Assembly: GCA_040757115.1 (NCBI GenBank)
Contig: JBFLYA010000010.1
Span: forward strand, 1-35,764
Direction of reading: 5' to 3'
Length of the DNA stretch: 35,764 nt
From: a bacterium
GTDB lineage: Bacteria > UBA9089 > CG2-30-40-21 > SBAY01
Position 1 is the stretch's first letter; each line of letters opens with the position of its first letter. The translations under genes were made by a program, and so were the position numbers. The notes below the pieces were generated by a model that made no database searches, was not told the origin of the DNA, and saw nothing but the letters and a program-made list of their open reading frames with translations. Of the stretch, positions 15,032-33,399 are shown piece after piece.

Positions 15032-15264
15032 CCGTTCAGGCTATATATCAAAAGTGTAAGAAAGGGGATAAGGAGATAAGAGTGATATGGAGATAAGATA
15101 ATAGAAATAGATTGAAATTTATAGAAATAGGTAGAAATTGATTGTGGAAAACAACAAATTTCCATAAATTTCTATTAGTTTCTATTAATTTCAATTTTTT
15201 TAATAATATCTCCCTATCTCCTTAATCTCCACATCTCCTTTTGTTACACCACCTGAACGCTTAC
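15028..15264. mobile_element. 237-bp IS66-like MITE (MITE-A)
   Basis: GTAACCGTTCAGG / CCTGAACGCTTAC ends; appears identical to 33425-33661; no target duplication at this site. Confidence 0.92.
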
Positions 15265-15335
15265 GGAATTTGGAATTTGTGATTTGGAATTTCATAGCCA
15301 TATCTGGGTCAAATTTCGATTAATAAGTGCTATAA

Positions 15336-16640
15336 TTACTCGTGCCTTACTTTATCCATTTCCACCTTTTCTCGTTTCCCACTTTCAGTAACAGTAGATG
15401 ATTCTTTGGATATTTCACATTTATCTTGAAGGGTTAAAGTTGGCTGAAGGGTAAAGGTATTTGGAACAGAGTAGGATAATGGTAAATTAATAAGTAAAGG
15501 AGAGGATTCCAGAAATTGTTTGGGTAAAATCTGGTGTGGGACAAATCTGATGTTATCCTCTGTCAATAAGGCATTTTTGGTATATTTACATCCTGGATTC
15601 CAGAGTAGCCATTCATCTACTCCGTGAGCATAGAGCGCATTGATTTGGTCTCTGACTTCTTTTGCCCCATAGGTGTATTCAAGTGAAAAATCCTGGAGCC
15701 AGGGTCGAATTTTACAGTTTGTCTCTTTAATCTGTTGATTTGCATCTTTTATACTTAAGAAAATAGTTTTATAAGGTTGCGAATCAGGGTTAGATATGCC
15801 ATAAGAGCCTTTGGCATAGTGAGAAGGATAGACCATTGGTGAGATAAAATCTACATATTCAGCTATCTGCTTAAATTTTTGACCTATACCAATCCCATTT
15901 TTGCAAAGCGTAGTTAAACCAAAAACATCTATGGATAAAAATGCAGCTGCGCCGAGTGTTTGTTTAGCAAATTTGATAAATTCAATAATGGTATCTGCCT
16001 GTTTTTGCGTAGAATGTTCCTCGCCATACCAACAATTACTTATCAAGCCATCTGACGGGAATCTGACATAATCGAACTGAATTTCATCAAAACCTCTCTT
16101 AATCGCATCCATAGCAATATCAACATTATATTTCCAGACCTCTTTTAGATAAGGATTGACCCAACTTTGACCTTTGTCGTCGCGCCAAACCTTACCTGAT
16201 TTATCCATAACCGCTAAATATGGTTTTTTGGTTGCCAGCCAATTATCTTTAAATACAGTAATTCTGGCAATTTTGTAGAGGCCGTATTCATCACATAAAG
16301 CGATAATTTCATCAATATTTTTAATTCGTCTCTTAACAGCCTTAATTTCTTTTGCCAATGGCACATCTACATCGTAGGCAATAATTCCATCTACTTCTTT
16401 AATGTCAATTACTACGGTATTAAGTTCAGTTTCATTGATTAAATTGAGGGTTTTTTGAAAGAGGTTTTTACTCCCTGCAACCCAACTGGTAATATGGATT
16501 CCTTTGACTTTAAATGGTGACGAGATTGCAGTAGGTGAGCCTGGCGAGGTAAATTGTGCCTCACTGTTTATAGGGCAGATAGGATATATAAGACAGATAA
16601 GGAATATTAAAATCAGTTTATTCTTCCTGTTTAAATTCAT
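15336..16640 (-). CDS. Secreted putative glycoside hydrolase (DUF4015-like)
   Basis: Signal peptide; ELNTVVIDIKEVDG, GFDEIQFDYVRFP, ISPMVYPSHY, RPWLQDF, WLLWNP. Confidence 0.8.
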   Translation of the reverse strand: MNLNRKNKLILIFLICLIYPICPINSEAQFTSPGSPTAISSPFKVKGIHITSWVAGSKNLFQKTLNLINETELNTVVIDIKEVDGIIAYDVDVPLAKEIKAVKRRIKNIDEIIALCDEYGLYKIARITVFKDNWLATKKPYLAVMDKSGKVWRDDKGQSWVNPYLKEVWKYNVDIAMDAIKRGFDEIQFDYVRFPSDGLISNCWYGEEHSTQKQADTIIEFIKFAKQTLGAAAFLSIDVFGLTTLCKNGIGIGQKFKQIAEYVDFISPMVYPSHYAKGSYGISNPDSQPYKTIFLSIKDANQQIKETNCKIRPWLQDFSLEYTYGAKEVRDQINALYAHGVDEWLLWNPGCKYTKNALLTEDNIRFVPHQILPKQFLESSPLLINLPLSYSVPNTFTLQPTLTLQDKCEISKESSTVTESGKREKVEMDKVRHE

Positions 16641-17883: not shown

Positions 17884-19035
17884 TCAATCTGCCTGTCTTC
17901 TTAAGAAAGTAGGGATTTCGAAGAGGTCGCTATTATAAACATTAATTCTTTCCTGGATTGCTTCCTGTTGTTTTTCATATTCGGCTTTTTTAAATATTTT
18001 TTCTCCTTTGAAACTTTCCATATCTATTGTTTTCGCTTGTGATTGTGGCACTCGTTCTATTTTTGGAACTGTTTTCCCAAATCCCGTGGCAATAACTGTA
18101 ATTTTTATTTCACCCTGAATCGCTTCAGAAGTAACCGCACCGAAGATAATATTTGCATTTCTATCTGCCTTTTCTGTAATAAAAGTAGCGGCTTCATCTA
18201 TTTCGGATAAAAGCATATCTGTTCCACCAGTAATATTTATCAATATTCCTTGAGCACCCTCAATAGATGCTTCTTCTAACAAGGGGGATGAAACGGCATG
18301 TTGAGCGGCATGTAGGGCTCGATTTTCACCGGTGCCGACTCCAATGCCCATCAGTGCATTTCCTTTAGAAGACATAATCGTCCGCACATCGGCAAAATCA
18401 AGATTAATTATTCCCGGGATAGTAATTAAATCTGATATTCCTTGAATAGCCTGTCTTAAGACATTATCTGCGACTTTAAAGGCATCCAGGATAGTTGTAT
18501 TTTTTTCAACAACACCTAATAATTTTTGATTGGGAATGGTAATAAGTGTATCAACCTTATCAACGAGTTCTGCTAAACCTAATTCACCCTGCTGGATGCG
18601 TTTTTGTCCCTCAAATAAAAATGGTTTAGTCACAACGGCAACAGTAAGAGCACCTGATTCCCGTGCAATTTCCGCAATAATTGGTGCGGCTCCTGTACCT
18701 GTTCCACCACCCATACCCGCGGTGATAAATATCATATCTGATCCGACTAATGCTTCCTGGAGTGTTTCTCTATCTTCTTGTGCGGCTCGCTGTCCTATTT
18801 CTGGATTAGACCCAGCACCTAACCCTTTGGTCAATTTATCACCAATCTGTATTTTGTATGGGACAATTGATGTTTTTAGCGCCTGGGCATCCGTATTAGT
18901 TACTATAAATTCAATACAGCTATTGCTCATTCGATTAGCAAACATACCATTGACCGCATTACTTCCCCCTCCGCCAACACCAATTACTTTAATCTTCGTT
19001 GGTGATGTTACATCATTTTCAAATTCAAAACCCAT
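17884..19035 (-). CDS. ftsZ: Cell division protein FtsZ
   Basis: [32 protein letters not shown]-terminal [11 protein letters not shown]. Confidence 0.99.
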
Positions 19036-19056
19036 GAATTTTTACCCCCTTGTGTT

Positions 19057-19141
19057 TGGTAACTGGTAACTGGTAATTAGTTACCAATTACCAGTTACCA
19101 CTTAACCGATTAGTTAGTTTATAATTTCGTGAAGCCCTATT
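19057..19141. repeat. Heptamer palindrome (TGGTAAC)n/(CAGTTAC)n plus a 20-bp tail motif
   Basis: TGGTAAC TGGTAAC TGGTAAT TAGTTAC CAATTAC CAGTTAC; tail TAATTTCGTGAAGCCCTATT recurs at 21220-21239. Confidence 0.75.
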
Positions 19142-19186
19142 AATTTTGGATTTTAGATTGGGAAAAGATTTCCATCAATCCAACAT

Positions 19187-20416
19187 CTAAAAGAATTCTC
19201 CAACCCATTCTTTCATTCGATTCAGAACTCTTTGAAAGGCATTTCTTCCACCCAATTTAGTTTTCTTGCCTTCTAATTTATGCATCATACCATAAGTTAC
19301 CAGTCCGACACCCGTTGAGTATAGTGGTGAATTAACCACATCGACTAAACCACTTACTCCCCGTGGGAAACCAATTCTAACGGGTAAATCAAATACCCGT
19401 TCGGCTAATGCGGCTGTGCCTTCTAACATCGAAGCGCCGCCCGTTAAAACAACTCCTGAAGTAACTAAATTTTCATAGCCCGTCATTCTTATTTCTTGAT
19501 TTATCAAGCTGAAGATTTCTTCCATTCGTGGTTCAATAATCTCAGCTAATACCTGTCGCGGCAAAGTTCTTTCTTTGTATTCTCCTACTGATGGAATACC
19601 AATCGTTTCGCCATTTTTAATTAAAGAACCCATACAACAGCCATAATTTATTTTAATCTTCTCTGCCTCAACAATTGGTGTTCGTAATCCAACAGATATA
19701 TCTTTCGTCACATTATCTCCACCAATAGATAAAACGCCTGTGTGCCAGATACTTCCATCAATGAAGATAACAATATCGGTTGTTCCACCACCAATATCTA
19801 CCAGAACAATACCTAAATCTTTTTCATCTTCAGTTAAAACTGCATAGGCATCAGCTAAAGGTTCAAGGACAATATCATCCACCTCAAAGCCGGCTCGATT
19901 AACACATTTGATAATATTTTGAGCCGAGGTCACGGCGCCGGTAACAATATGAATTTCTACTTCTAATCGAACTCCAGACATTCCAACGGGTTCTTTTATT
20001 CCATCCTGACCGTCGATAATAAATTGTTGTGGTAAAACATGAATTACTTCGCGGTCAAGTGGGATAGATACGGCTTTGGCGGCATCTATGACGCGTTCGA
20101 CATCTGCCTGAGTTACCTCGCGACCCCTTGAAATAGCAATGACACCATGACTATTCATCCCTTTTATATGCCCACCGGCAATACCAGCAAATACCGATGA
20201 TACCTCTACACCGGCCATAAGTTCTGCTTCACTGACTGCATTCTCAATAGATTTAACCGTAGAATCAATATTTACAACTACCCCTTTTCGTAATCCATGA
20301 GAGGGGCTGGTGCCCACACCGATTATTTCTACCCTATCTTCGTCAATCTCTCCTATAACGGCACAAACCTTTGTTGTCCCTATATCCAATCCAACGATTA
20401 TATCTTCTTTTGCCAT
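19187..20416 (-). CDS. ftsA: Cell division protein FtsA
   Basis: GLDIGTTKV, GLRKGVVVNID, VDIGGGTTD, VLTGGAS, C-terminal amphipathic helix; directly upstream of ftsZ. Confidence 0.99.
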   Translation of the reverse strand: MAKEDIIVGLDIGTTKVCAVIGEIDEDRVEIIGVGTSPSHGLRKGVVVNIDSTVKSIENAVSEAELMAGVEVSSVFAGIAGGHIKGMNSHGVIAISRGREVTQADVERVIDAAKAVSIPLDREVIHVLPQQFIIDGQDGIKEPVGMSGVRLEVEIHIVTGAVTSAQNIIKCVNRAGFEVDDIVLEPLADAYAVLTEDEKDLGIVLVDIGGGTTDIVIFIDGSIWHTGVLSIGGDNVTKDISVGLRTPIVEAEKIKINYGCCMGSLIKNGETIGIPSVGEYKERTLPRQVLAEIIEPRMEEIFSLINQEIRMTGYENLVTSGVVLTGGASMLEGTAALAERVFDLPVRIGFPRGVSGLVDVVNSPLYSTGVGLVTYGMMHKLEGKKTKLGGRNAFQRVLNRMKEWVGEFF

Positions 20417-20461
20417 TTAATATCTCCTTATTTTTGGTAATTGGTAATTAGGGAACGGTAA

Positions 20462-21186
20462 CTAGTGCTCTGTCGCTACTCAATTGATGTCCCCCCTGGC
20501 CTAATCATTACCCACATCTTTTAGTGGACAGATTAGATAGAAATTCCAAATTCCAAGCACCAAATTCCAAATAAATTCCAAATTCCAAACACTAAATTCC
20601 AAAGTTTATATTACAACGATAAAAATTCATTTAGACTTTTCAATAATTGAAGAAAAAATTTTCTTCAATTCTATTGCCTCCTTGAAAAGCCTTTCTCCTT
20701 CTTGTTTAAATTTTTCATCGTTAGTTCCAATTATTAATCTTAACCAATAAGCAGATTCTTTTGATTCTTTACGACAAATCTTTATTCTCATCTTAAAATC
20801 TTTCGAGCCTAAAGACTCATTTGCCTCAATATAGTTTGCTCCAACTGAACCCGAAGCCCTAATTATTTGCTTTACATATTCGATATTAGTAATAGTTTTA
20901 GGTAGTTTCTTACAGAATAAAGCAACCTCTTGAGCAAATTGATAAGTTCTTTCTTCTAAATCATATTGTTTGGAATTTTGAATTTTGGTCATTGGAATTT
21001 ATTTGTATTTTGGAATTTGTGATTTGGAATTTTGCCACTCACTCCGCTCTCCTGCAATCTCTAATCTCCCCTTTATAGTTTATCCTTGCTTACCTCATCT
21101 TGTTACCCAACTTGTGGGTAACGATAAGACTCCCGCCAGCGGGGGACAACGGCCAATCAATCACTTGAATGGCGACAGAGCACTAG
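20462..21186. mobile_element. CTAG-bounded MITE (IS630/IS5-like ends) carrying a four-helix-bundle gene
   Basis: CTAGTGCTCTGTCGC / GCGACAGAGCACTAG with longer imperfect internal inverted repeats; no transposase. Confidence 0.75.
20627..20992 (-). CDS. Four helix bundle protein (TIGR02436 / 23S rRNA-IVP / Avd-like)
   Basis: DLEERTYQFA, QIIRASGSVGANYIEANE, KDFKMRIKICRKESKESAYWLRL. Confidence 0.92.
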   Translation of the reverse strand: MTKIQNSKQYDLEERTYQFAQEVALFCKKLPKTITNIEYVKQIIRASGSVGANYIEANESLGSKDFKMRIKICRKESKESAYWLRLIIGTNDEKFKQEGERLFKEAIELKKIFSSIIEKSK

Positions 21187-21238
21187 TTACCTCTTATCAG
21201 TTAACCAATTACTTACTTTTAATTTCGTGAAACCCTAT

Positions 21239-21386
21239 TTATTCTAACAGTCCAAATACCTTTACTTGCTGATTATTTCTATCTACTACATAGATATTGC
21301 CCTTATTGTCACAGGCAATACCTGCTGGTTTATTCAAACCATACCATTGTAGCACAAAACTACCCATTTTGTCAAATTTTTTTATT
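21239..21386. repeat. Direct repeat copy 1 (3' end of the giant gene)
   Basis: Matches 32403-32549 with 5 substitutions and 1 indel. Confidence 0.92.
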
Positions 21387-24300
21387 CGGTTATTGTTCGT
21401 ATCTGAGATATAAATATATCCCTGACCATTTACTACTATGCCTTCAGGCTTGTTAAACTTGCCGTCTTCCTTAATTTGCATCTGCAAAATTCCTTCTTTA
21501 TCAAACTTTAATACCCGGTCATTATTTCTATCTGCAACATAAATATTACCTTGCTCATCTACGAATATTCCTGCTGGTTTGTTTAGTAGTTGATTACCTA
21601 TTTCTATGAGTAATTCTCCTGCTTGATTAAATTTTAATATTCGATTGTTATTGGAATCTGTAACATAGATATTACCTTTTTCATCTAATGTTACCCCAGT
21701 TGGCTTGTTAAAGCCTTTACCTATCTCCATAATTAATCTTCCATCTTTATCAAACTTTACTATCCGATTGTTATTAGTATCTGCGACATAAAGATTATCT
21801 TCACTGTCTATGGCAATTCCTTCTGGATGATTTAATCCTTCATCCTGTCCAATTATCTCTATTAACCCTCCTTTTGAGTCAAATTTTAGTATCTCTCCAG
21901 TGTTGGAATGGTTAGTAACATAGATATTTTCTTCCCTGTCTAAAGCCACATAGCTGGGGTGAAATTTCCCCTTTTCATAACTAATAGTGGTTAAAAGTTC
22001 TGGTTTACCAATAAATATTACCACACTATCTTCTATTAAATTAGTTACCTTATCTTCTGTTGTTACTTTTAAGGTATAGTATGAGTCTTGAGTTAATTTT
22101 GATGTCTCCCATTTGAATTCTATCAATGAGACAGTTCCTTTAGTTAATTCTGTCCATGTAGGAGTATCTGTCCCTTGTGCATAACTTATCTTGTAATCTT
22201 CTAAATGAATATCCTCTATTGTCCCGAAAATAGTTATTGTCCCTTGAAATATCTGACAGACACCAACATTTTCCTTTGAGGGTGAAATTAGCTCTACCTT
22301 CGGTGAAGTCGTATCCAAAATCACAGTGATATTCTTTGTTGTTTCTGTATTCCCAGCCTTATCTACCCCACGGTAATAAATCGTATGTGTCCCATCTTCA
22401 TACCCGGCTAAAGTAAATATCCCGGCTCTAATCCAGGATTGATTATCAACATTGTATTCCGTATATCCTATTCCTGAGAAATTGTCAACTGAAGTTAGTG
22501 TAAACGGTGTAACTCCACTGACAATAGTCTCCTGGTAGTTTGGAATGCCAATAGAAATAGTTGTTACGGGTGGAATGATGTCAATTACCCTGACATAACT
22601 ACTGGCAATAGATATTGTCTTTCCTTCTGCTTCTGCCTGTAACGCAAGCAGATATGACTTAGCCTCCAACCCGGCTGTCTCTACTACCAGACTACTGCCA
22701 TAATTTGCACCCATAGGCAAATTAATTACTTCGGTGAATGTCTTAACTACTGCTTTTGTCTCCGGGTCAATTATAAGTTTATTAACAGTTAAACTACCCA
22801 GGTCAATATTACCTATGTTGGTTAAGGAATAATTCAAGGTAAAGGCGGCAGGACCTTCAACTACCTTCGGTTCTGCTCCAATCTGTCCCTTAATGCCCGT
22901 CCCACTTTCTAAACTGGAGAGTATCTTAAAAGAAGCAGTGGCTTGATGTATGGGTTCATTCTGGTAATAGACTATTTGAGTGACAGAATAGGTGCCCGCT
23001 GAATTTGTGAGTGTATTCCAATACGATTTTAGGTCCTTTCTTGCCTCTGGTAAAAGAATGGGAATAGGCTTTTGGTCAGTAAAAATAGGTTTTCCAACAT
23101 CATTAGTAATTGCTATTTCAACTACCAGATTCTCAAAGGTAAAATTAGGGCTCTGACTCTTTATATTACTCAGGATAGTTACATCTGTGTTAGCAGAATA
23201 AGAAATTTTGTCAGTAGCCACTGATGCATCTATCTCTAATACTGGCAAAATAGCAAAATTATCCGTGGTTTGAACTCTGGGTATTCCTACCTCACTCAAT
23301 ACTGCCTTTACCTGATAATCTGCAGATATAACATCTCTGGTGTTCCAGATAAGGGAATAGTTTCTTTGTTCTGCTGGAGTAATCCCGGCTATCGACACTG
23401 TCCCTACTTTATCTACCAAATTACCTTTTATATCAACAATTTCTATCTCAGCCATCAGGTCTTTTACCAGATTACTCAGATTAGTTACCTCTATTTGAAT
23501 ATCTACCTTTTCAAAGGCAGTATAAGTAGCTTTGTTAGTTGATGCCCTCAAACTAAATTGGGCGGGGTTAATCAGAATGGTCTTTTGATATGAATTATTG
23601 GTCTCGTCTAACTCTTCAATCTGTGAATCCGGGTCAGCCGTAACGATAATCTCACGCTCACCTGCGTTGCCCAGGGTATTCCAGATTAAGGAAACATCCT
23701 TTGTTCCTGCCAGCGGAATTGAGGATACTACTACATCACCCATATCTGAAAATCGAACCTTAACTCCGCAGACCTCTTGACCATAATTATGCACTACCGC
23801 CGTAATTACTACCTCATCGCCTTCCGTTGGGGTTGGGTTGGAGAAAGAGATACTATCTATACTCAAGTCTGGCTTATCTGGAATGGCTATATCTATGGCT
23901 TTATGAGTGATATTATTAACTTCATTAGACTCATCAATCAGGTTGTCTGGATCTACTATAACATAGATATAATTTTGCCCACTCTGGCTTAATGTATCCC
24001 AGGTTATCTGAGCAGTTGCCACCCCTCCAGCAAGAATTTGGGAAATATTGCTTACTCCTATCTCGTTGCTTCCTGGTATATCTGGATTGCCATCAAAGAA
24101 CTGAACAACCACATTATTTGCTGAAATCCCACCCTGGTTATGAACTACCGAGGTGATAACAACTGGCTTGCCTTCGGTTGGCTGGGAAGGTGAAAAGGTA
24201 ATATCATCTTTGCCTATGCTCAAATCTGGTTTTGGAACCATACCACTAATTACTGTTATAGAAACAGAAGCAAAGTTATTAGTTTCATTCATCTCTTTTA

Positions 24301-27300
24301 TCGTATCTAATGGGTCGACAACTACATAAATATTGTGTATTCCAATAGTTGACACCCAATTAATTTGAGCTGTTTCTGTAGAGTGTGGGAGAATAGTTGC
24401 TATTGTTTTTGTCCCTATTAAAATTCCACCATCCGCAGGATTTCCATCATAAAAATTCAACCAGATATCATTTGCCTCAAGCTCACCAATATTATGAATT
24501 ATAGCTGTAATTGTTAGATATTCACCTTCTATTGGGTTTGAATTTGAAAAAGATATATCTGATTCGGAAAGTGTAATATCCGGCTTCATCAATAACCATT
24601 TGATTATATTTCTGAATAATTGAATCCAATCACCCGGGGAGGCATCTAACACTCCTCCACTATCCCATGAGGCATATATCTCTTCCGCCATTAAAACTGT
24701 TTTATGTCCCTGATAGCAAATAAATACATCTTCATATTTATCAACTAATAAAGGTTGTGCACCATCTAACTCAAATTTATCGTTATCCGGATCAGCTATA
24801 CTTCCCAAATCACTCACTCCCTGGGCAAAGAAAGAGTTCTTAAAAGTAAATGGAGCGGTAAAATGTTTCTCTGTTGATGCGCTAATTCCAAAAAGAGGGA
24901 AAATTATATCATGTATCCACCACTCTGCTCCAATATCATCCTGGGCTAAGAATACTGCCCCTCCTTTATTAAGATACTCTCTTATCGCCTCTGCCTCCTG
25001 TGTAGTAATTTTATAATCATGCTCAGTAACTACAATCACCTCATAATCTTTAAGATGCTCATAGATGTAATTTTGTTCTGTTACTCCCACAATAGGCAAC
25101 TCATTACTATTTAGCCTGTTAGCCACCTCCATATAAAAGTGCCCTACTACACCTACCTTAACCTCCGGTAACACCTCTGATGGTGTAGCCTTTGCTTCTA
25201 TTGATTTTTCACTTTCATTACCTGCTTTATCTAAGGCTGTTATCCTATAAGCATATTCCTGGCCATTGGTAAGTCCAATATCCCAATACAAAGTCCCAAC
25301 TATTATAGTTGGGTTAATTTTACTCCCATCACGATATATGTTATATCCGGCTAAATCGGATTCAGTATTAGCAGTCCAATTTAAATAGACAAATTTGTTC
25401 CCTGGTGTTGCCTTTAACCCTGTTGGTGCTTGGGGTGGTGTAGTATCTAATATAATGACTATTGGTAATGAAGGTTGACTCCTATAACTATCTTTAATTG
25501 CTACCACAGTAATAGTATTTGTTCCTTCGATTAAACCTACTCCTGTAAAGGTAAATGTCCCATCATCATCAGCCATAGTTATTCCAAAAGATATACCATT
25601 AGCAAATACTTCAACCTCTATATTTGGCTCTGTTTTTCCAGAGATAGTTATAGGAGTAGTATTAACCCAGATGGGTGTCCCGGCAATGGTAGGAAAGGTA
25701 ATAGTCGGTGGATTGATGTAATAGCCTTGAGGTGTAGCACATACAGATGCAGAATGCTCACTTTCATTCCCTTCTTTATCTACTGCGGTGACAGTATAGG
25801 TATAAATTAGTCCATTAATCAATCCTGTATCTCGATAGTTTGTAGAGATAATCAACGCTGTATTTATCTTAACCCCATTTCGATATAAATTGTATCCAGC
25901 CAGATTTCCTTCAGGATTTGCATTCCAGCTCAGGTCTATCATACTATTGCCTGGAATAGCAATTAATCCGGTAGGTGCTGATATAGTAGGCGTCCCTTTG
26001 ACTGTAAGGGTTTTAGAGATGATATTATTTGCCTTATTGGATTCAACGATGCTCTTTGCTGGGTCAACTACCACATAGATATCATAAATTCCAGCCGGGA
26101 GTGGTCCATAATCAAGTGTAAGTTCAGCCTGTGCTCCACCTGGTAATAAAGCACAGGTAGATGTGCCCAATTCATAACCATTTTCCGCAGGATTTCCATC
26201 ATATAACTCTACCACAACATCCTTTGCGGCTGACTCACCCAGATTATAAACTATGACCTTAATAGCTACTACATCTCCCTCTTGAGGATTTATTGGGTTA
26301 AATGAAATGCTGGCAGTTAAATCAGGTAATGTTGCCACTGTCAGGTTCTTCTCGGCGATGTTATTTGTCTCATCCCGCTCTTTAATTTGATTCGCCGGGT
26401 CAACCTCTACAACAATCTTATGCGTCCCCGCCGTAAATGTCCCTACCAAACTCACCGTTGCACTTCCTCCATCTTCTATCTCACCAATGGCTAATGACTG
26501 ATGACTAATGACTCCTTCCACATCCTTAACCGGTGTGCCACCATAATTCCAGATAGTCGCTTTAATCGTCACAGGCTCACCTTCAACAGGCACCTCAGGT
26601 TCAAAGGTAATATCTTGCCAACTTATCGCCAGGTCTGGTGCCGAATCCTTCAATGCCCGCAATGCTAAGGCCGTAGTATAGGCATCTTGATTCCAACTGC
26701 CGTCTTCATCTTGAGCATCCAAAATATATTCTAATGTCTTCTCTAAATCCGCAATCCGCAATCCGCAATTTGCAATCGCAGAATATGCCAATGCTGTTTC
26801 CCAGATACTATTCCTAAAACTACCATCTGCATTTTGCTGGGATATAAGCCACTCAACTGCTTTATCAATTGCAGGCTCAACATAAAAATCCAGGCGATAC
26901 TGGTTAAGTACAAGAAGTACTAAAGCAGTAAGATAAATGTTACTTCCACTCTCAGAAGTAAATCCCCAGCTTCCATCTGGGTTCTGGTTAGCCGAGATGT
27001 AAGAGATGGCATTGTTAATGATGGTGGTATCAGAATAATTAGCCATACAAAGAGCTTTTAGTACTAAGATAGTATTTAGTATAGTGCTTTTAAATCCTTT
27101 ATTAATTCCCCAGCCACCATCACTATTTTGGGCTAAGGTAAGTGTACCGATAAGCGGAGTAGTCTGAGTACCAAAAGTTGCTAATGTATTTATCTTTCTT
27201 GCTAATTGACGAATACAAGTAGTATCTTGACTTGTAATCCAATTAACAACATTTATAGTTGGAGTATCTAAGAGATTAAGATAACATAAGGTATCAGCAA

Positions 27301-27484
27301 TAAGGCAAGTATCTCTAAAGAGAGTACTTGGATACACAGTCTCAGTACCCCAACAACCATTAGAACTCTGAGTATCTTTTAGCCATTGGACACCTTTATC
27401 AATTGCTACATCTTGAGCCTCTACATGGATTGGGATTAATCCACCAAAAAGTACTACAAATATTAAACATTTGAATTTACTCAT
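21239..27484 (-). CDS. Giant secreted multidomain protein: prenyltransferase/squalene-cyclase-like repeats, CARDB, FN3, Ig-like, GATase-like insert, NHL propeller
   Basis: Signal peptide from ATG 27484; QNSDGGWG-type QW repeats; PDL...VDP.N.I.E.NE.NN CARDB units; APTGL.A.PGN FN3 units; C-terminal P.GIA.D..GNIYV.D..NNRI repeats. Confidence 0.85.
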   Translation of the reverse strand: MSKFKCLIFVVLFGGLIPIHVEAQDVAIDKGVQWLKDTQSSNGCWGTETVYPSTLFRDTCLIADTLCYLNLLDTPTINVVNWITSQDTTCIRQLARKINTLATFGTQTTPLIGTLTLAQNSDGGWGINKGFKSTILNTILVLKALCMANYSDTTIINNAISYISANQNPDGSWGFTSESGSNIYLTALVLLVLNQYRLDFYVEPAIDKAVEWLISQQNADGSFRNSIWETALAYSAIANCGLRIADLEKTLEYILDAQDEDGSWNQDAYTTALALRALKDSAPDLAISWQDITFEPEVPVEGEPVTIKATIWNYGGTPVKDVEGVISHQSLAIGEIEDGGSATVSLVGTFTAGTHKIVVEVDPANQIKERDETNNIAEKNLTVATLPDLTASISFNPINPQEGDVVAIKVIVYNLGESAAKDVVVELYDGNPAENGYELGTSTCALLPGGAQAELTLDYGPLPAGIYDIYVVVDPAKSIVESNKANNIISKTLTVKGTPTISAPTGLIAIPGNSMIDLSWNANPEGNLAGYNLYRNGVKINTALIISTNYRDTGLINGLIYTYTVTAVDKEGNESEHSASVCATPQGYYINPPTITFPTIAGTPIWVNTTPITISGKTEPNIEVEVFANGISFGITMADDDGTFTFTGVGLIEGTNTITVVAIKDSYRSQPSLPIVIILDTTPPQAPTGLKATPGNKFVYLNWTANTESDLAGYNIYRDGSKINPTIIVGTLYWDIGLTNGQEYAYRITALDKAGNESEKSIEAKATPSEVLPEVKVGVVGHFYMEVANRLNSNELPIVGVTEQNYIYEHLKDYEVIVVTEHDYKITTQEAEAIREYLNKGGAVFLAQDDIGAEWWIHDIIFPLFGISASTEKHFTAPFTFKNSFFAQGVSDLGSIADPDNDKFELDGAQPLLVDKYEDVFICYQGHKTVLMAEEIYASWDSGGVLDASPGDWIQLFRNIIKWLLMKPDITLSESDISFSNSNPIEGEYLTITAIIHNIGELEANDIWLNFYDGNPADGGILIGTKTIATILPHSTETAQINWVSTIGIHNIYVVVDPLDTIKEMNETNNFASVSITVISGMVPKPDLSIGKDDITFSPSQPTEGKPVVITSVVHNQGGISANNVVVQFFDGNPDIPGSNEIGVSNISQILAGGVATAQITWDTLSQSGQNYIYVIVDPDNLIDESNEVNNITHKAIDIAIPDKPDLSIDSISFSNPTPTEGDEVVITAVVHNYGQEVCGVKVRFSDMGDVVVSSIPLAGTKDVSLIWNTLGNAGEREIIVTADPDSQIEELDETNNSYQKTILINPAQFSLRASTNKATYTAFEKVDIQIEVTNLSNLVKDLMAEIEIVDIKGNLVDKVGTVSIAGITPAEQRNYSLIWNTRDVISADYQVKAVLSEVGIPRVQTTDNFAILPVLEIDASVATDKISYSANTDVTILSNIKSQSPNFTFENLVVEIAITNDVGKPIFTDQKPIPILLPEARKDLKSYWNTLTNSAGTYSVTQIVYYQNEPIHQATASFKILSSLESGTGIKGQIGAEPKVVEGPAAFTLNYSLTNIGNIDLGSLTVNKLIIDPETKAVVKTFTEVINLPMGANYGSSLVVETAGLEAKSYLLALQAEAEGKTISIASSYVRVIDIIPPVTTISIGIPNYQETIVSGVTPFTLTSVDNFSGIGYTEYNVDNQSWIRAGIFTLAGYEDGTHTIYYRGVDKAGNTETTKNITVILDTTSPKVELISPSKENVGVCQIFQGTITIFGTIEDIHLEDYKISYAQGTDTPTWTELTKGTVSLIEFKWETSKLTQDSYYTLKVTTEDKVTNLIEDSVVIFIGKPELLTTISYEKGKFHPSYVALDREENIYVTNHSNTGEILKFDSKGGLIEIIGQDEGLNHPEGIAIDSEDNLYVADTNNNRIVKFDKDGRLIMEIGKGFNKPTGVTLDEKGNIYVTDSNNNRILKFNQAGELLIEIGNQLLNKPAGIFVDEQGNIYVADRNNDRVLKFDKEGILQMQIKEDGKFNKPEGIVVNGQGYIYISDTNNNRIKKFDKMGSFVLQWYGLNKPAGIACDNKGNIYVVDRNNQQVKVFGLLE

Positions 27485-27946
27485 CTTTCTTTTACCTTTC
27501 CCCATCTAAACTTAATATTGGTAGAATTCCTTCCTTTTTTGCCAATAATTGCTCCTCCAATACCTCTCCCGATTGTACTTAAAAGTGCAAATCCTAATAT
27601 TATCAGCCATATTTCTATGTGGAAACAAGTTCGAGAAGTACTTTCCTCTATAATAAAATCCACTACCCAAAATGCTCCTCTTATACAAGTTGCACTAAGA
27701 ATACCAAATTTCCCTTTAATTTCAGCAGAAAGAGGTATGTATGTTCTCCTTACTACCCCATCGGATAAAATTAACTATCCAGAGAATAACAGCACTTATT
27801 ATACCACCAAAAAGAAATCCAAAGACAAAAAATACTATACTAAAACAAATAGACAATAAAAGATTAGGTGTACCCCCTCCTGTATAAGTAAGAGCCCAAC
27901 TTGTCAATCCTCCAATTAATATAGCGATATAAATCCATATCTTCAT
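27481..27946 (-). pseudogene. Frameshifted small multi-TM membrane protein (candidate degenerate immunity gene)
   Basis: The 74-aa hydrophobic ORF overlaps a second open frame (from ~27775) that continues into the 60-aa ORF; its TGA overlaps the next ATG (ATGA). Confidence 0.55.
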
Positions 27947-27976
27947 TTTACCTTATATTTCATCATGTATATCATC

Positions 27977-28966
27977 TTAAAAGTAAAGATCTAAAAATTT
28001 CTTATTACTCGCATCTATTCGGGCTATCCCTTCTCTATATCTTAATTCTGAATGTATTTCTTTATCCATGTCTTTAGTTTTCACCTCCACAACCCATGTT
28101 AATCTTGTCTCAGTATTAAACTTATCATAGGGAGGAATCATAAGATAAGTATAATTTGGTGACACAATATATAATTTTGCTGACTTAACCTTTAAGACTT
28201 TATGCTTCAATACCCATTCAAAAAATCTCTTTGTTTTAGCAATCGCTTGTTTTTTTGTCACCTTAACATTTAAAGGACAATTTGAACTTATTAGCCACCA
28301 AGGACTTTTAGAATAGAACAATAACTCACCTGTATAGATATCTACTTTTATTATAATATCAACACTCCCATGAACTTGATCTCTAAACTCATATCCTTCT
28401 CTGTTTTTTACCCATCTAATTTTCCATGCATAAAAAGGAGAACTATGAAGACTATCTGTCCTTATTTTTTTTATCTCTTTTAACACAGCATCCTTGGGGC
28501 TACCTATTAAAGATAAATATTCCTCTGCTTTTTGCAAGGCTTCATTTTGAGAAATAGGATTCTTATTATATAAAAGAGATTTTTGTTTCTGAGAATAAGA
28601 AAAACCAACTATCATCTTTTTATATCTGCTTATAGTTAAACCTACCCGTGTTTTATCATTTTCCCATACTATATAATATTCATAAGGATTAGTTAAACTC
28701 CTAATTTTGTTACATACTGGTGTAGCATTAATATGAATCCCTAATTTTTTCAACAAATCACTTCCCGATGCAATAATATTATCTTCTCTAACAGGTGGAA
28801 ATGGTTCATAACTTTCTCTAATCTCTAAGTTATTTAACCAACCATTGATATAAAGAGAAGCAATGAAATATCCAATAGGCCCATAATAGTAAACAGGATA
28901 TACTATTATTAATAATATAAATATCCATATCATAGTTCCTAATCTCTTCTTTTTAACTTCATTCAT
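27977..28966 (-). CDS. Membrane-anchored PepSY/YcdB-YcdC-like repeat protein
   Basis: N-terminal TM; two units ISQNEALQKAEEYL...IKVDIYTGEL and VTKKQAIAK...RLTWVV...ARIDA. Confidence 0.6.
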   Translation of the reverse strand: MNEVKKKRLGTMIWIFILLIIVYPVYYYGPIGYFIASLYINGWLNNLEIRESYEPFPPVREDNIIASGSDLLKKLGIHINATPVCNKIRSLTNPYEYYIVWENDKTRVGLTISRYKKMIVGFSYSQKQKSLLYNKNPISQNEALQKAEEYLSLIGSPKDAVLKEIKKIRTDSLHSSPFYAWKIRWVKNREGYEFRDQVHGSVDIIIKVDIYTGELLFYSKSPWWLISSNCPLNVKVTKKQAIAKTKRFFEWVLKHKVLKVKSAKLYIVSPNYTYLMIPPYDKFNTETRLTWVVEVKTKDMDKEIHSELRYREGIARIDASNKKFLDLYF

Positions 28967-28980
28967 AAAATATCCTCTTA

Positions 28981-31900
28981 CTAAGGAATAGATGGGTCCA
29001 AAACTGTATTAATATCGCCAATATGTTCCCTATTAGTAAGGAGTACTTCCATAGATTCGCCTGCTGTGAAACTACTAATCATTAACTCCCAAAAATTTAA
29101 TGCATTTATCCATGATTTCCCAATAATAATTCCTTTATATCCAATAAATATTTCCTTACCTTCTTCAGATTCATTTATCCCCAAAACCTTAGCAAACTCC
29201 CTACCTTTTTTGAAAGTATGACATCCACTCAAGAATACTATTTTAAAATCTCCAGATACATCATCTGGACTAATATCTTGCTCTCCATCTTTTGGATCAA
29301 GAATAAGATTTCCTGTTACTCCTCCTCCATGTCCCATAAAGTAGAAAACGTCTTTATGTGTTCTATTTTGAGCTAATAGCGTATTAAAATCATTTTTAGT
29401 AAAAGTCTCTCCATAGACTACATTATATCCTCGAGCATATAATCCATCTGCAACATCATAGATATGTTCTATCCCCCAACCACAAATCCTCTTAATCCAT
29501 CCCCCAAATCCTCTCTCAGGTTTTCCCAGACACAGTATTGCCCATGCCCTGCTCATATCTACTTTAAAATCCTTTGGGGTAGTTCCTGTAAGGTAATGTA
29601 CCATATATCCTGGGATATATGTATCATTCGTTCCTCCAGCTAACTCACCTGAAATTATATATCCACCTGCACCTGTTTCCAAATCCATAGCTATGTATCC
29701 TACTCCATTCCAATTATTAACTGAAATATTTGTTTGAGGTATGGTTATTGTTCTACCTGCATTTACATAATTCCATAATTCTTCCTTTACTGTATCAGAG
29801 ACGCCAAGTTGCGGTATAATTTCTCCTGCATTATTACTGTTGAAATTATGTATAGTTATTCCTCTTTGATTTGCTATTCGAAGTAATTTCACTGCTGAAA
29901 TTGAAGATAAGCCATAACATTCCTCAAGTAATGCATGTTCCCAATAAGAAGCCTCCATTCCACTTATCCTCATAAATTGTAACTGCTTACTAAAGTTTCC
30001 ATCATCTACAAAAGGAGTAACAATTATTCTATCAATATCCATAGATAGCTTACTAATCTCTATGCTCTTGGGAATCTGAAATAAATAAGTTGTATTGAGT
30101 TCAAATGCCATTGTGCCTTCAGAGATTCCTTTAGTTTTAACCACATGCATTAATTGTTCTAATAATGTATAAGATTTATCAAGTTTTTGAAAGTAAAATA
30201 GAAGGGTGTCGTAAAGTATCTCACCTACAAAATCATCTCTTTTCTCATTTTTGATATTTAGGATACCAAACAAGTCTTTAGCATCTAAAAACTTATCTAT
30301 CCGTTGATCTATAAGTTGTGACGGTATGTTTTGCATATTTAAACCAATAGCATAGTAACTTCCTCCAGTTATCTCTTTAGTAGTAATATCAATTAAACCT
30401 TCTGGTGATACAAATTGGATAGTGAAGTTTTGAGTAGTTCCCATCTTTACTTCTAAACCAACAATTTTAGTTTCTCCTTCCACCCGTAACACAGGTTTTA
30501 AATTCGTTAGGTAAGCAGGGGCATAATATAATCCACCATACTCTTTAGCTATCTTTTCATCATCAGAAGCTGCTGGGATGTATGATAATGTTATTCTTTT
30601 TCCTGCTAATTCAGGGAATCTTACGGTATAATCTATCCCACCAACCTTAAAACTTATCTTATGTCTTAACTCACCTGGAATTTCAGAGTATTTATCCAAA
30701 ACTGCAAGAGTATCATAAGCAAGTGAATCAGGTAAAATACCAAATTCTTCTTTAATTATCCCCTTTAATCTTAAAATGTCTACTAATTTCTTATCTGGCA
30801 TGTTAGCATTAAGATAATCAACAAGTTGATTAAAATATTCTAATACTGGTGAAATAGTCTTGGTCCCACTGAGATATGCATTTGTATCAAACTGTAATTG
30901 TAAAGATAAGTCTATATCTTCCTTAGTGGTATACTGTTTAAAACTTGGGTCAAGTGAAACCCACATTTTATTTCCTCTTGAAATACTTACTCCTTCATCT
31001 GGCAGATAAGGAATATAAATCTCTACCCAAACATGTTCTATTTTTAGCTTTGAAATCTCACCACCACTTATACCTAAAGCAGATGGTATTCCACCACTGG
31101 CAAACATATCACCACAGGTTTTTTTATCTTTCACTCCCACCCAATTCATTGCCTGTTCGATGGGTATTTCAATCGTGCCATAGACATAGCGGGCGGGGAT
31201 GTTGGCAGCTCGATAGAGAGCAATTAATAAAGATGCTAAATCAAAGTCATTGCCTGCTTTTTCCCATAAGGTTTCTTGACTCCCTTTGAGTGAACCATAG
31301 TAAGGTTCGTAGTCAAAATTATTGCGGACATATTCGTAGATTAATACAGGATTGCTTTTTAAGGTATTGGTGGCTAATTGGCGGATTTCAGGGGTTATCT
31401 GAACATCAATGGTTTCTGATAAATCAGCTTCCGTAGGTAAATTACTGATGGGAGACTGTTCCTCTATCGCCTGAGCTAGCACAAAGGTATCTGGGAAACC
31501 AGCAGAGGCGTATAAGGGATGTGAGATGTGGGATGTGGGATGTGGATTGCGGACTGCGGATTGGAGTTCAGGCTTTAGCCTTTCATTCTGCCCTCTGCCC
31601 TCTGCCTTCTGATATCTGTCTACTGACTTCTGCCCACTATCTACTTTTATCCTTGGTGGCTTTGGCGTTAACTTCGGTGCCATACGATGCGGTAATTTAT
31701 TGGGGTCTAATGGTTTTGGTTTGGGGCGATACTGTGCCTTCTCAATAAACTCTTGCAGTTCCTTTATCTTCGTTTTTTGCTCTGTGTTATTAGCTGAAAT
31801 AGCCACACTTAACCTGCTCTGAAGATTAGCAAAATTTTCCTCATACTGTTTCACAAAATCATAATGCCGCTGAAGTATTTTATCTGGCAGTTTCTTATCC

Positions 31901-32199
31901 TTCAAAAATTCCTCAGTCTCTTTAAACTCTCTCCTGAGTTCTTTATCCAGCTCTTTGAGTTCTTCCTCTTTAACTCTCAGCTCCTCAACCCTTATCTCTT
32001 CACTTTTCACTAACTCATCAATTGCCTCTGTCCACTTCTCAGCTGTAGTCTTTTCTTTTTTCTGACTTTTGACTTCTGACTTCTGGCTTCTTTCCTCAGT
32101 CGCCGCGTAAACAAAATTATTCCCTCCCACCGCAGTATAAGTAAAACAAATTAAGACTACCCAGATAATCGGTTTTAACTTTTTAGTCCAAGTTTGCAT
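28981..32199 (-). CDS. Secreted transglutaminase-like protein with C-terminal caspase-fold (clan CD-like) domain
   Basis: Signal peptide; YYGSLKGSQETL..KAGNDFDLASLLIALYRAANIPARYV, EHVWVE, WVSLDPSFK; linker GYIISGELAGG; C-terminal FYFMGHG...VFLSGCHT. Confidence 0.8.
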   Translation of the reverse strand: MQTWTKKLKPIIWVVLICFTYTAVGGNNFVYAATEERSQKSEVKSQKKEKTTAEKWTEAIDELVKSEEIRVEELRVKEEELKELDKELRREFKETEEFLKDKKLPDKILQRHYDFVKQYEENFANLQSRLSVAISANNTEQKTKIKELQEFIEKAQYRPKPKPLDPNKLPHRMAPKLTPKPPRIKVDSGQKSVDRYQKAEGRGQNERLKPELQSAVRNPHPTSHISHPLYASAGFPDTFVLAQAIEEQSPISNLPTEADLSETIDVQITPEIRQLATNTLKSNPVLIYEYVRNNFDYEPYYGSLKGSQETLWEKAGNDFDLASLLIALYRAANIPARYVYGTIEIPIEQAMNWVGVKDKKTCGDMFASGGIPSALGISGGEISKLKIEHVWVEIYIPYLPDEGVSISRGNKMWVSLDPSFKQYTTKEDIDLSLQLQFDTNAYLSGTKTISPVLEYFNQLVDYLNANMPDKKLVDILRLKGIIKEEFGILPDSLAYDTLAVLDKYSEIPGELRHKISFKVGGIDYTVRFPELAGKRITLSYIPAASDDEKIAKEYGGLYYAPAYLTNLKPVLRVEGETKIVGLEVKMGTTQNFTIQFVSPEGLIDITTKEITGGSYYAIGLNMQNIPSQLIDQRIDKFLDAKDLFGILNIKNEKRDDFVGEILYDTLLFYFQKLDKSYTLLEQLMHVVKTKGISEGTMAFELNTTYLFQIPKSIEISKLSMDIDRIIVTPFVDDGNFSKQLQFMRISGMEASYWEHALLEECYGLSSISAVKLLRIANQRGITIHNFNSNNAGEIIPQLGVSDTVKEELWNYVNAGRTITIPQTNISVNNWNGVGYIAMDLETGAGGYIISGELAGGTNDTYIPGYMVHYLTGTTPKDFKVDMSRAWAILCLGKPERGFGGWIKRICGWGIEHIYDVADGLYARGYNVVYGETFTKNDFNTLLAQNRTHKDVFYFMGHGGGVTGNLILDPKDGEQDISPDDVSGDFKIVFLSGCHTFKKGREFAKVLGINESEEGKEIFIGYKGIIIGKSWINALNFWELMISSFTAGESMEVLLTNREHIGDINTVLDPSIP

Positions 32200-32402: not shown

Positions 32403-32549
32403 TTATTCTAACAATCCAAATACCTTCACCTGCTGATTATTTCTATCTACTACATAGATATTGCCCTTATTGTTACAGGCAATACCTGCTGGTTTATTCA
32501 ACCCATACCATTGTAGCACAAAACTACCCATTTTGTCAAATTTTTTATT
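32403..32549. repeat. Direct repeat copy 2 (orphan 3' end of an NHL gene abutting the ftsQ stop)
   Basis: Encodes KFDKMGSFVLQWYGLNKPAGIACNNKGNIYVVDRNNQQVKVFGLLE*, like the giant-protein C-terminus. Confidence 0.92.
32510..32539 (-). promoter_or_regulatory. Sigma70-like promoter inside the direct repeat (second copy at 21346-21375)
   Basis: TTGACA-18 bp-TACAAT with TG extension. Confidence 0.45.
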
Positions 32550-33399
32550 AGATTTTTTCTCTATCTTTAACAATAATATTATCAAATCTTAAATCAATAT
32601 ATTCTGGATATTCTGATTTTTCCCGGTAGTAGTCCAAAATTATTTTTAATTCCTTTAATCTTTCAACTAATCTTTTTGGTTCTAATTGATGTCCCAGATG
32701 TATTTTTGTCTCGTCAAATTTTGTAATGAGTAATATATCATATTGATGGGCAATATCAATGCACAAAAGATCAGGTAGTAATTCAATTTCGTGTTCTTTT
32801 ATTTGTGAAATAACTAATAAGGCATCAGTTAATTCTTTATTCGTAAGCGGTATGCCTGTTTTTAAAGTTCTAATGCCTGTGATAACAGGTAATTCTTGTT
32901 CATTTTCCATTTTAAAAGCAATAAGATTTTTGTCAATTCCAAATACCCGCGAACCAATTAATATCTTTGCTACTGGCTTTCGTGGTTTAATTTTAATCAC
33001 TATGTCTTTTGGAAATTTTCGCTGAATAACGATATATTCTATCTTAGGATTTTTTAATAATGTATTTTTTAAATCTGTAAATTTTATCTTAAATATACTT
33101 GGCTCGACACTCGAATAATTCTTGAGGCAAAACTCTTTAAATGTCTTAAAAATCTCTTCTTCTTCGATTATCCCCTTATTTTCTAAAATAATAATTGGTT
33201 TTTTAACCTGAAATTTATGAGAACTCATCAGAAAAAATGGTAATTGGATAATTTGCCAGAGAATAACTATGACTAAAATTAAGATAGATAACTTGATAAA
33301 TTTTTTAAGGTATGTTTTAATGAGTCTCTTTCGTCCCTTTTTGCTTCGCCATTTATCTTTTCTGCCACTTAGTTGTTGGGCTAAACCTTTGTGTTTCAT
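32548..33399 (-). CDS. ftsQ: Cell division protein FtsQ/DivIB
   Basis: Basic N-terminus, single TM, POTRA-like IQRKFPKDIVIKIKPRKPVA, C-terminal YIDLRF; lies after ddl in the dcw order. Confidence 0.88.
   Translation of the reverse strand: MKHKGLAQQLSGRKDKWRSKKGRKRLIKTYLKKFIKLSILILVIVILWQIIQLPFFLMSSHKFQVKKPIIILENKGIIEEEEIFKTFKEFCLKNYSSVEPSIFKIKFTDLKNTLLKNPKIEYIVIQRKFPKDIVIKIKPRKPVAKILIGSRVFGIDKNLIAFKMENEQELPVITGIRTLKTGIPLTNKELTDALLVISQIKEHEIELLPDLLCIDIAHQYDILLITKFDETKIHLGHQLEPKRLVERLKELKIILDYYREKSEYPEYIDLRFDNIIVKDREKI

Follow-up and report, generated by a model that had tools for sequence, protein, structure and literature searches.

How does a long, self-complementary insert carrying a complete protein gene come to lie in the leader of the cell division gene ftsA? 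The question is raised by a 35,764-nt stretch of DNA, here called the window, from a bacterium of the GTDB lineage UBA9089; CG2-30-40-21; SBAY01 (GenBank assembly GCA_040757115.1, contig JBFLYA010000010.1, positions 1 to 35,764 of the forward strand). The host genome (G000) is a metagenome bin of 4.3 Mb in 462 contigs with a GC content of 36.8%. On the minus strand of the window, a gene for a 2088-amino acid (aa) NHL-repeat protein (27505..21239) is followed by the region in question, ftsA, a 151-nt spacer and ftsZ. Comparisons were made with a sister genome of the same genus (G001) and with genomes of other genera (L001, L002 and L003), all of which, being kin, are non-independent samples. 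Contigs named below without a genome are those of the host.

The region consists of four nested layers, A to D, every one of which is an independent multi-copy family in the genome. An initial annotation, made from the letters alone, had already described a four-level nest. It is a true nest of mobile elements, but the layer now called C had been missed. The most probable answer to the question, to which a probability of roughly 0.8 can be given, is that a ready-made 725-bp composite of layers B, C and D entered the ftsA leader in a single recent transposition, its target being the TA of a CTAG at the hairpin tip. The layers are arranged as follows:

20417..20461, minus strand: layer A, proximal half of the ftsA leader, with TGGTAAT-type heptamers and a ribosome-binding site (GGAG, 20427..20424)
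20462..21186, no strand: layer B, 725 bp, with CTAG at both ends; short copies and an insertion sequence (IS) share its ends
20501..21128, no strand: layer C, with 16-nt terminal repeats at 20501-20516 and 21113-21128
20541..20606, no strand: layer D, left arm, tandem AAATTCC-type heptamers, downstream of the open reading frame (ORF) in the sense of the transcript
20627..20992, minus strand: gene for a 121-aa protein of the 23S rRNA intervening sequence (IVS) family (PF05635), on the same strand as ftsA
20964..21032, no strand: layer D, right arm, complementary GGAATTT-type heptamers, including the start codon and first 9-10 codons of the ORF
21187..21239, minus strand: layer A, distal half of the ftsA leader, with a match to the tail motif (1 mismatch) and an nhmmer hit at 21238-21168

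Composite copies and the empty ftsA site

The arrangement of layers B, C and D seen at ftsA also exists in finished form elsewhere. Contig C266 carries a full composite, B(C(D)), that is 98.6% identical to the window copy over 727 nt, the sister genome has another (G001:C502, 98%), and the identity of composites elsewhere to the window copy is 96-99%. Counted by their junctions, with the window included, there are 13 left joints (B-left plus C-left) and 15 right joints in the assembly. On G001:C701, the C(D) unit is found alone, with an intact gene and its own 9-bp duplication.

The ftsA gene of G001 encodes a protein that is 100% identical, within DNA that is 98% identical over 2595 nt, and the element is absent from its leader. 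The proximal half of the leader, that is, the 45 nt up to the ftsA ATG, is the same in both genomes up to the insertion point, from which the G001 leader runs straight to the tail with a single YTAG. The apex of the G001 hairpin is an ordinary one like that before ftsZ, from which it differs by one base, and a reading of the G001 site as an excision footprint was rejected on those grounds. Since the G001 site is empty, the insertion is younger than the split of the two genomes, and the existence of the ready-made composite elsewhere, together with the lone C(D) unit and the empty site, leads to the conclusion that ftsA received a single insertion.

In the proposed sequence of events, layer B would earlier have acquired layer C, with C carrying the heptamer-armed PF05635 cassette D. 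The composite would then move by cut-and-paste transposition, for which an IS630-family IS with matching ends, present in the genome, would provide the transposase in trans, and the C(D) unit could also move alone by means of a different transposition system that makes duplications of about 9 bp. At ftsA, the point of entry would have been 45 nt upstream of the start codon, an insertion presumably tolerated because the ribosome-binding site and the start codon were left intact. A read-through transcript would fold on itself through stems A, B and D, and RNase III may trim it as it does an rRNA IVS.

Layer B, a non-autonomous IS630-type element

Layer B contributes its own sequence at 20462-20500 and 21129-21186, with a TA duplication at 20463-20464 and 21184-21185. 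The 20-bp inverted repeat noticed at first in this place (20457-20476 / 21172-21191) is indeed perfect and opens a pair of 32-nt arms with 91% complementarity, but it is not a single unit, being composed of 5 nt of the host hairpin (GGTAA/TTACC), the CTAG target and the terminal repeat of the element. The ends recur elsewhere in the genome, about 70 times, and the suspected IS630-family element with the same ends exists in the genome as fragments; on both counts the initial annotation was borne out.

A 19-mer from the layer B end, allowing up to 3 mismatches, has 64 matches in the assembly. These form 16 pairs: eight are 148-149 bp apart, one each is 289, 341 and 377 bp, three are composites of 723-798 bp (the window, C266 and C322) and two are back-to-back. 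Of the 32 ends left unpaired, about 25 are no farther than 300 nt from a contig end, where the assembly broke. With respect to the flanking 4-mers, 63 of 115 pattern hits end in CTA, and these 63 are nearly all of the hits that have the inner sequence of the element. At both ends, the 148-149-bp short copies are similar to the IS, which is what a deletion derivative would show. Within 20462-21186, the PF05635 gene is the only ORF positive in Pfam; an 81-aa ORF on the plus strand has no match, and there is no transposase gene.

Several fragments link these ends to a transposase. On C444 (14843-15626), an ORF with a helix-turn-helix (homeodomain-like, PF13565, E 7e-18) comes after the terminal repeat, and on C45 (1-178), C185 and C149 the C-terminus of a transposase runs into the other terminal repeat. 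C418 has a 5'-truncated, 83% identical transposase paralogue that includes DDE_3 (E 4e-28) in the usual two-frame arrangement. IS630 elements are described as inserting at TA and duplicating it (PMC2170065). With its IS-matching ends, its TA within CTAG, its lack of a transposase and its many copies, layer B is, judged by its sequence, an IS630-type miniature inverted-repeat transposable element (MITE) or mobile insertion cassette (MIC). Because its ends are shared with the IS, many copies lie at different sites and an orthologous site is empty, it is probably mobilised in trans by the cognate IS630-family transposase.

B-type elements are also found back-to-back, sharing one CTAG, at C426:17989-18378 (MITE/IS) and C189:27759-27956 (MITE/MITE).

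Layers C and D, a second miniature element and its cargo

The terminal repeat of layer C has 109 matches in the genome at up to 3 mismatches. Direct repeats of 8-11 bp, mostly 9 bp, flank all 11 of the 11 complete copies examined, and every complete copy holds an internal heptamer hairpin with either AATTGAC-type or AAATTCC-type units. A search of the genome for an autonomous partner gave no inverted pair of layer C terminal repeats at IS-like spacing with a transposase.

At ftsA, the cargo of layer C is layer D. The AAATTCC arms that had been described initially are present, pairing over 49 nt at 80% (20541-20589 / 20984-21032) or over 59 nt at 71%, and the right arm does run into the N-terminal codons, as it contains the start codon and the first codons of the ORF. 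The ORF, which had been predicted to encode a four-helix bundle, belongs to PF05635 (23S_rRNA_IVP; E 8e-14, 52.2 bits against a cut-off of 33.8), with a match that spans profile positions 5-104 of 106. The protein also matches PDB entry 2rld (E 7e-11). It is identical in the window, on C266 and on G001:C502, and differs by one residue on G001:C701. No GGAG-type ribosome-binding site is found before the ORF.

PF05635 has 27 matches in the genome, of which 23 are above the cut-off. At most of the 25 loci that were scanned, inverted arrays of short units (6-8 nt, mostly 7 nt) stand on both sides of the gene, and nearly every paralogue has a different unit, for example TCGGGAC, GCAGAGG, GTAGAGA, GTAGTCA or AATTCAC. 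Of these cassettes, layer C repeats adjoin those of the AAATTCC type alone, with C31 as a possible further case, so that packaging into this MITE would be one way of spreading rather than the general way. The cassettes also occur in decayed forms: the ORF is truncated on C322, and at C409:18640-18920, C28:3620-3900 and C101:14300-14600 its middle is deleted, with the arms and the first and last codons kept. At C46:21139-21621, a layer C copy has the same AAATTCC arms around a different, repetitive loop of 216 nt.

Layer A and the hairpin tip as a target

The outermost layer is a leader cassette that precedes many genes and consists of an 18-nt tail motif, a heptamer hairpin and a ribosome-binding site. 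Before ftsA it is split by the insert. The tail motif in the distal half (21220-21237) adjoins the stop codon of the 2088-aa gene, and the outer arm of the heptamer hairpin on this side has decayed. An intact form lies before ftsZ:

19036..19150, minus strand: uninterrupted ftsZ leader cassette, with the tail at 19122-19139, the hairpin at 19057-19100, a ribosome-binding site and the ATG at 19035

An uninterrupted palindrome with its tail had been noted before ftsZ and is present there, at 19057-19141. When the ftsA site was emptied in silico by removing 20466-21186, it aligned to the ftsZ leader with a score of 53, compared to 9.9 ± 2.7 (maximum 19) in 1000 shuffles. The two conditions that would have refuted the initial description, a failure of this alignment and ends without further copies in the genome, were thus both decided in its favour. 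The ftsZ site is not a special empty paralogue, as had been assumed, but one of 58 leader copies.

That number comes from a search with the 18-nt tail at up to 2 mismatches, which found 58 copies in this genome (none with the reversed motif as a control) and 93 in G001. The remaining 29 of the 31 genomes searched have at most 5 copies each. An nhmmer profile identified 169 hairpin loci, 41 of them with the tail. Downstream of the tail, at a distance of 80-140 nt (mode 104), 26 of the 58 copies have an ORF of at least 60 aa complete with start codon and ribosome-binding site, an arrangement seen at 4.5% of 2000 random positions. On the other side, 36 of the 58 tails follow an ORF on the same strand, and in 14 of these cases the stop codon is no more than 30 nt away. 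Besides ftsZ and ftsA, the genes behind these cassettes include some that, from their N-termini, we take to be EF-Tu-like and GroEL-like. Going by its occurrence in the genomes searched, the leader cassette is genus-specific and locked in orientation and distance relative to gene starts. Four tails in tandem, spaced by about 80 nt, are found at G001 C200:4892-5153.

The leader cassette is a candidate for a portable promoter or 5' untranslated region module, and may act as a promoter, a processing site or a translation element. A promoter scan of the region found 7 promoter-like sites, compared to 8.1 ± 3.2 in shuffles, with none inside the tail, and a sigma-70 promoter could not be placed in the tail by eye either.

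The sequence at the leader apex is YTAR, and at ftsA it is CTAG. CTAG occurs at only 760 sites in the genome, compared to the 14,553 expected from base composition (ratio 0.05; about 19-fold under-represented), and 58 of these 760 sites are ends of layer B or the IS. Two further leaders are split at the apex by B-type elements, one of 341 bp at C419 7349-7750 and a relative at C259 ~200-330. Three of about 35 B-type insertions fall in 66 apex-like sites among about 42,000 CTAR sites, which is far above chance (about 2e-5, a rough figure, as the events are not independent).

Other 4-mers that are under-represented genome-wide are ACGT (0.04), GATC (0.16) and GTAC (0.18). At C195:912-1038 and C33:9414-9540, the leader hairpin apex is interrupted by a small insert of about 36 nt.

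In other genera of the family, the ftsA-ftsZ spacer contains tandem-heptamer hairpins, the heptamer of which differs between relatives. The loci concerned are 3489-3570 in L001, 2400-2500 and 3727-3850 in L002, which also has such a hairpin before ftsA, and 3727-3850 in L003, and the heptamers are TGGTAAT-type, GATTTTG-type (L002) or purine-rich (L003).

RNA fold and the ftsA transcript

In the initial annotation, the whole insert was thought capable of folding into one long stem. The predicted fold is strong: the minus strand of 20417-21240 has a minimum free energy (MFE) of -235.3 kcal/mol, compared to -175.1 ± 9.0 for 20 shuffles (z -6.7). However, the ends of layer C are not paired to each other. 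Arm-to-arm pairs in the MFE structure number 14 for layer A, 37 for B, 0 for C and 50 for D, and the C ends fold locally. The prediction is therefore one of nested stems with a branched middle rather than one continuous stem. The start codon and first 9-10 codons of the PF05635 ORF lie in the predicted stem D. The genome has a gene for RNase III (C26:429-812, E 2e-40).

A wider and rather doubtful idea is that the heptamer hairpins, that is, the leader hairpins before the ribosome-binding sites of dozens of genes (including those for EF-Tu, GroEL, FtsZ and FtsA) and the arms of the roughly 23 IVS-protein genes, are structures of one kind and form one system. The hairpin tips would serve as landing pads. 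The cassette, spreading inside transposon shells, would be an intervening sequence of mRNAs: it would be transcribed from the leader of its host gene and then excised from the transcript by RNase III, leaving that gene functional. If this were true, the rRNA IVS phenomenon would extend to essential protein-coding operons, and a first concrete route of spread would be available for a very large family of unknown function.

It is also possible, although distinctly unlikely, that the insert has been selected for a function in the expression of ftsA, such as that of an mRNA intervening sequence or a regulatory leader with a promoter or processing site, and is more than a tolerated parasite. ftsA is essential in model bacteria, the PF05635 gene shares its orientation, the anatomy is like that of an ORF-bearing rRNA IVS (a stem around a PF05635 ORF), and the organism is abundant (depth about 312 in the public run X1), all of which would fit such a role. 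RNase III is reported to excise rRNA IVSs (PMC4990558), and its gene is present, as noted above. However, the insert is found at ftsA in this genome only, G001 with its identical FtsA does without it, and before ftsA in L001 and L002 there is neither the insert nor this leader. Moreover, the other copies are at unrelated sites, and the promoter-like matches are at chance level.

Points against a single transposition, and assembly support

Several observations weigh against the preferred reading, in which a finished composite transposed once into the ftsA leader. The first concerns the origin of the composite: no target duplication marks the entry of layer C into B in the window copy, and B lacks about 50 nt of its centre, which means that the step from C into B was not a simple insertion. 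On C407 and C419, C is inserted in the right or left GC-rich arm of B with proper 9-bp duplications. Since such copies exist, the composite could have arisen by insertion of C followed by a deletion between the two near-identical arms of B. The second concerns the class of layer B, in that the short copies on C12 (TTAG/TTAG) and C3 (ATAG/ATAG) fit a 4-bp duplication better than a 2-bp one. These prompted an IS5-type reading with a 4-bp YTAR duplication, which gave way to IS630 in view of the IS630-like character of the linked transposase fragments. Thirdly, the assembly contains the IS only as fragments, located at contig ends, and does not include an intact transposase gene with these exact ends.

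The remaining points concern the assembly. Contigs from public runs, among them X1 and X2, were compared with the locus under a bridging rule of 31 letters. One X1 contig (19059-20489, depth 312) extends from ftsZ through ftsA and 28 nt into layer B without any difference, but these 28 nt are below the bridging rule. No listed independent piece spans the right junction or the interior of the insert, so that the presence at ftsA of the composite, rather than the short 148-bp form, rests on the assembly of the bin itself. In addition, an X1 contig joins 20460 to 21209 with 5 other letters between them (depth 293, 30-letter side). This joint is read here, tentatively, as another leader copy.

A joint in X2 runs from 20462 to 21184, skipping 721 letters, with 4 shared letters, a depth of 4.3 and a side of 29. 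Because this side is under 30 and the joint comes without the letters in between, it is taken only as a hint of what may be the empty-site allele of a related strain. Three other joints (19141 to 20461, 19083 to 21209 and 19104 to 21194) were rejected, as they look like cross-matches between leader copies.

Less likely still than a functional role is that the locus is an assembly artefact, in which a repeat was threaded wrongly through the ftsA leader and the real locus has the 148-bp element or none. Besides the lack of an independent contig across the insert, this would fit the many bin contigs that break inside the element and its depth: the summed contig depth over the element reaches about 20,000, compared to about 312 for unique sequence, a ratio (about 60-fold) that is not a copy number but fits a high-copy repeat. 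On the other hand, the X1 contig that enters the end of the element from unique ftsA sequence does so at the depth of the organism, showing that an element with a layer B end does abut the ftsA leader, and the bin contig reaches unique sequence on both sides. That the four layers were assembled step by step at ftsA, each element entering the centre of the previous hairpin, as the initial annotation had proposed, is highly improbable: each layer is a separate family and hairpin tips are hit repeatedly (C419 and C259), but the identical finished composite occurs on C266, on G001:C502 and at some 13-15 junctions, C(D) occurs alone with its own duplication, and G001 has only the empty site and no intermediate form.

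Relation to known systems

The preferred reading, a composite transposed as a unit, combines features of several known systems. The RUP elements of Streptococcus pneumoniae are thought to be moved by IS630-Spn1 (PMC2229807). Like these and other MITEs derived from IS630/Tc1-mariner elements, layer B is short, non-autonomous and multi-copy, with a predicted long stem-loop fold and terminal repeats that match an IS630-family IS of the same genome; like IS630 itself, it inserts at TA, here within CTAG. Unlike RUP-type MITEs, which are about 100-150 bp in size, the window copy is 725 bp long and holds another transposable element and a complete protein gene.

A further comparison is with the MICs, of which MIC231 of Bacillus cereus is an example. 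MICs are described as IS ends around passenger genes without a transposase (PMC3129680). The composite likewise has IS terminal repeats around a passenger gene that is not a transposase, the whole being multiplied in the genome. It differs from the MICs in that the passenger is a hairpin cassette within a second MITE, so that there are two shells of differing transposition chemistry (duplication of TA for the outer and of about 9 bp for the inner one).

The innermost layer resembles the IVSs of 23S rRNA, ORF-bearing examples of which are described from Coxiella burnetii and Leptospira (PMC4990558). In both, complementary ends form a stem whose loop holds a PF05635/S23p gene, heptamer repeats adjoin the start codon, and the ribosome-binding site is weak or absent. 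The Coxiella IVS ORF is preceded by tandem GACAGAT repeats (PMC4990558), and the same source describes the Coxiella S23p gene as weakly translated, which may be compared with the start codon in stem D and the lack of a GGAG-type site at ftsA. By analogy, RNase III would be the expected processing enzyme here as well. Unlike a 23S rRNA IVS, the element is not in rRNA but in the 5' leader of a protein gene, within two transposon shells. It lies between a protein gene and ftsA rather than interrupting a 23S rRNA helix, the feature that defines an IVS.

Direct repeats of the heptamer TAACTGA have been described from Beggiatoaceae, Cyanobacteria and Bacteroidetes, where they lie just upstream of start codons (PMC4679880). 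The heptamers of the leader cassette, TAACTGG and TAATTGG, are one base away and also stand before many unrelated genes, including essential ones. Unlike the TAACTGA direct repeats, they are inverted, forming a hairpin that is followed by a ribosome-binding site and preceded by the 18-nt tail, and they are genus-specific. Reused or mobile promoters have been reported in prokaryotes (PMC3575422), and the Correia elements of Neisseria are repeats that form hairpins in transcripts and are proposed to be RNase III targets affecting neighbouring genes (PMC2229807). Like mobile promoters, the leader cassettes are near-identical upstream cassettes before unrelated genes. Unlike mobile promoters and Correia elements, the leader cassette is known from its sequence, and the scan gave no clear sigma-70 match in the tail.

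Nested MITEs and passenger-carrying cassettes are already-known kinds of elements. The new feature is that the passenger inside two transposon shells is a hairpin cassette of the IVS type, situated in the leader of an essential division gene for which an empty orthologous site is known. In the open-access literature, no paper was found on the mobility of heptamer-armed IVS-protein cassettes, and nothing specific on the IVS-protein family in connection with repeats or on nested heptamer hairpin MITEs. A cassette carried as cargo, target duplications, a candidate transposase and an empty site together provide a concrete and testable route of spread. Furthermore, a self-pairing insert of 725 bp at 45 nt from the ftsA start, in an abundant organism, is a natural test of whether hairpin inserts can be neutralised at the RNA level. 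The orientation-locked leader cassette, with 58 sites in this genome and 93 in G001, merits a study of its own.

The wider locus

The division genes of the window are the following:

17884..19035, minus strand: ftsZ (PF00091 E 3e-47, PF12327 E 1e-32)
19187..20416, minus strand: ftsA (PF14450 E 7e-49, PF02491 E 4e-34)
33399..32548, minus strand: ftsQ, 12 kb upstream of the insert region

The insert had been assigned to the transcript of the division and cell wall (dcw) cluster. The gene directly upstream of it is not a dcw gene but the 2088-aa NHL-repeat gene, and ftsQ lies 12 kb farther up. The roughly 12 kb between ftsQ and ftsA hold three genes, for proteins of 2088, 329 and 1072 aa (21239-32199). 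In L001 and L002, ftsQ adjoins ftsA directly, and in G001 all that separates ftsQ from the ftsA leader is a 195-nt remnant, derived from the giant gene at its 3' end.

In Rfam, the whole window has no rRNA and no match to any other family at gathering thresholds, and 18900-21400 searched at E values up to 5 gave nothing relevant, the one match being a chance miRNA on the ftsZ hairpin. The best sigma-70-like match of the region lies at 21375-21346 on the minus strand (TTGACA, 18 nt, TACAAT, with TG; 11/12). It falls within the giant gene at its 3' end, some 105 nt ahead of the tail of the ftsA leader, and is retained in the G001 remnant right after ftsQ. Elsewhere in the window, at 15200-15360, two fragments of hairpin repeats are found side by side, a GGAGATA-type heptamer arm and an AAATTCC-family right arm, followed by a flank that is common to C322 and C92.

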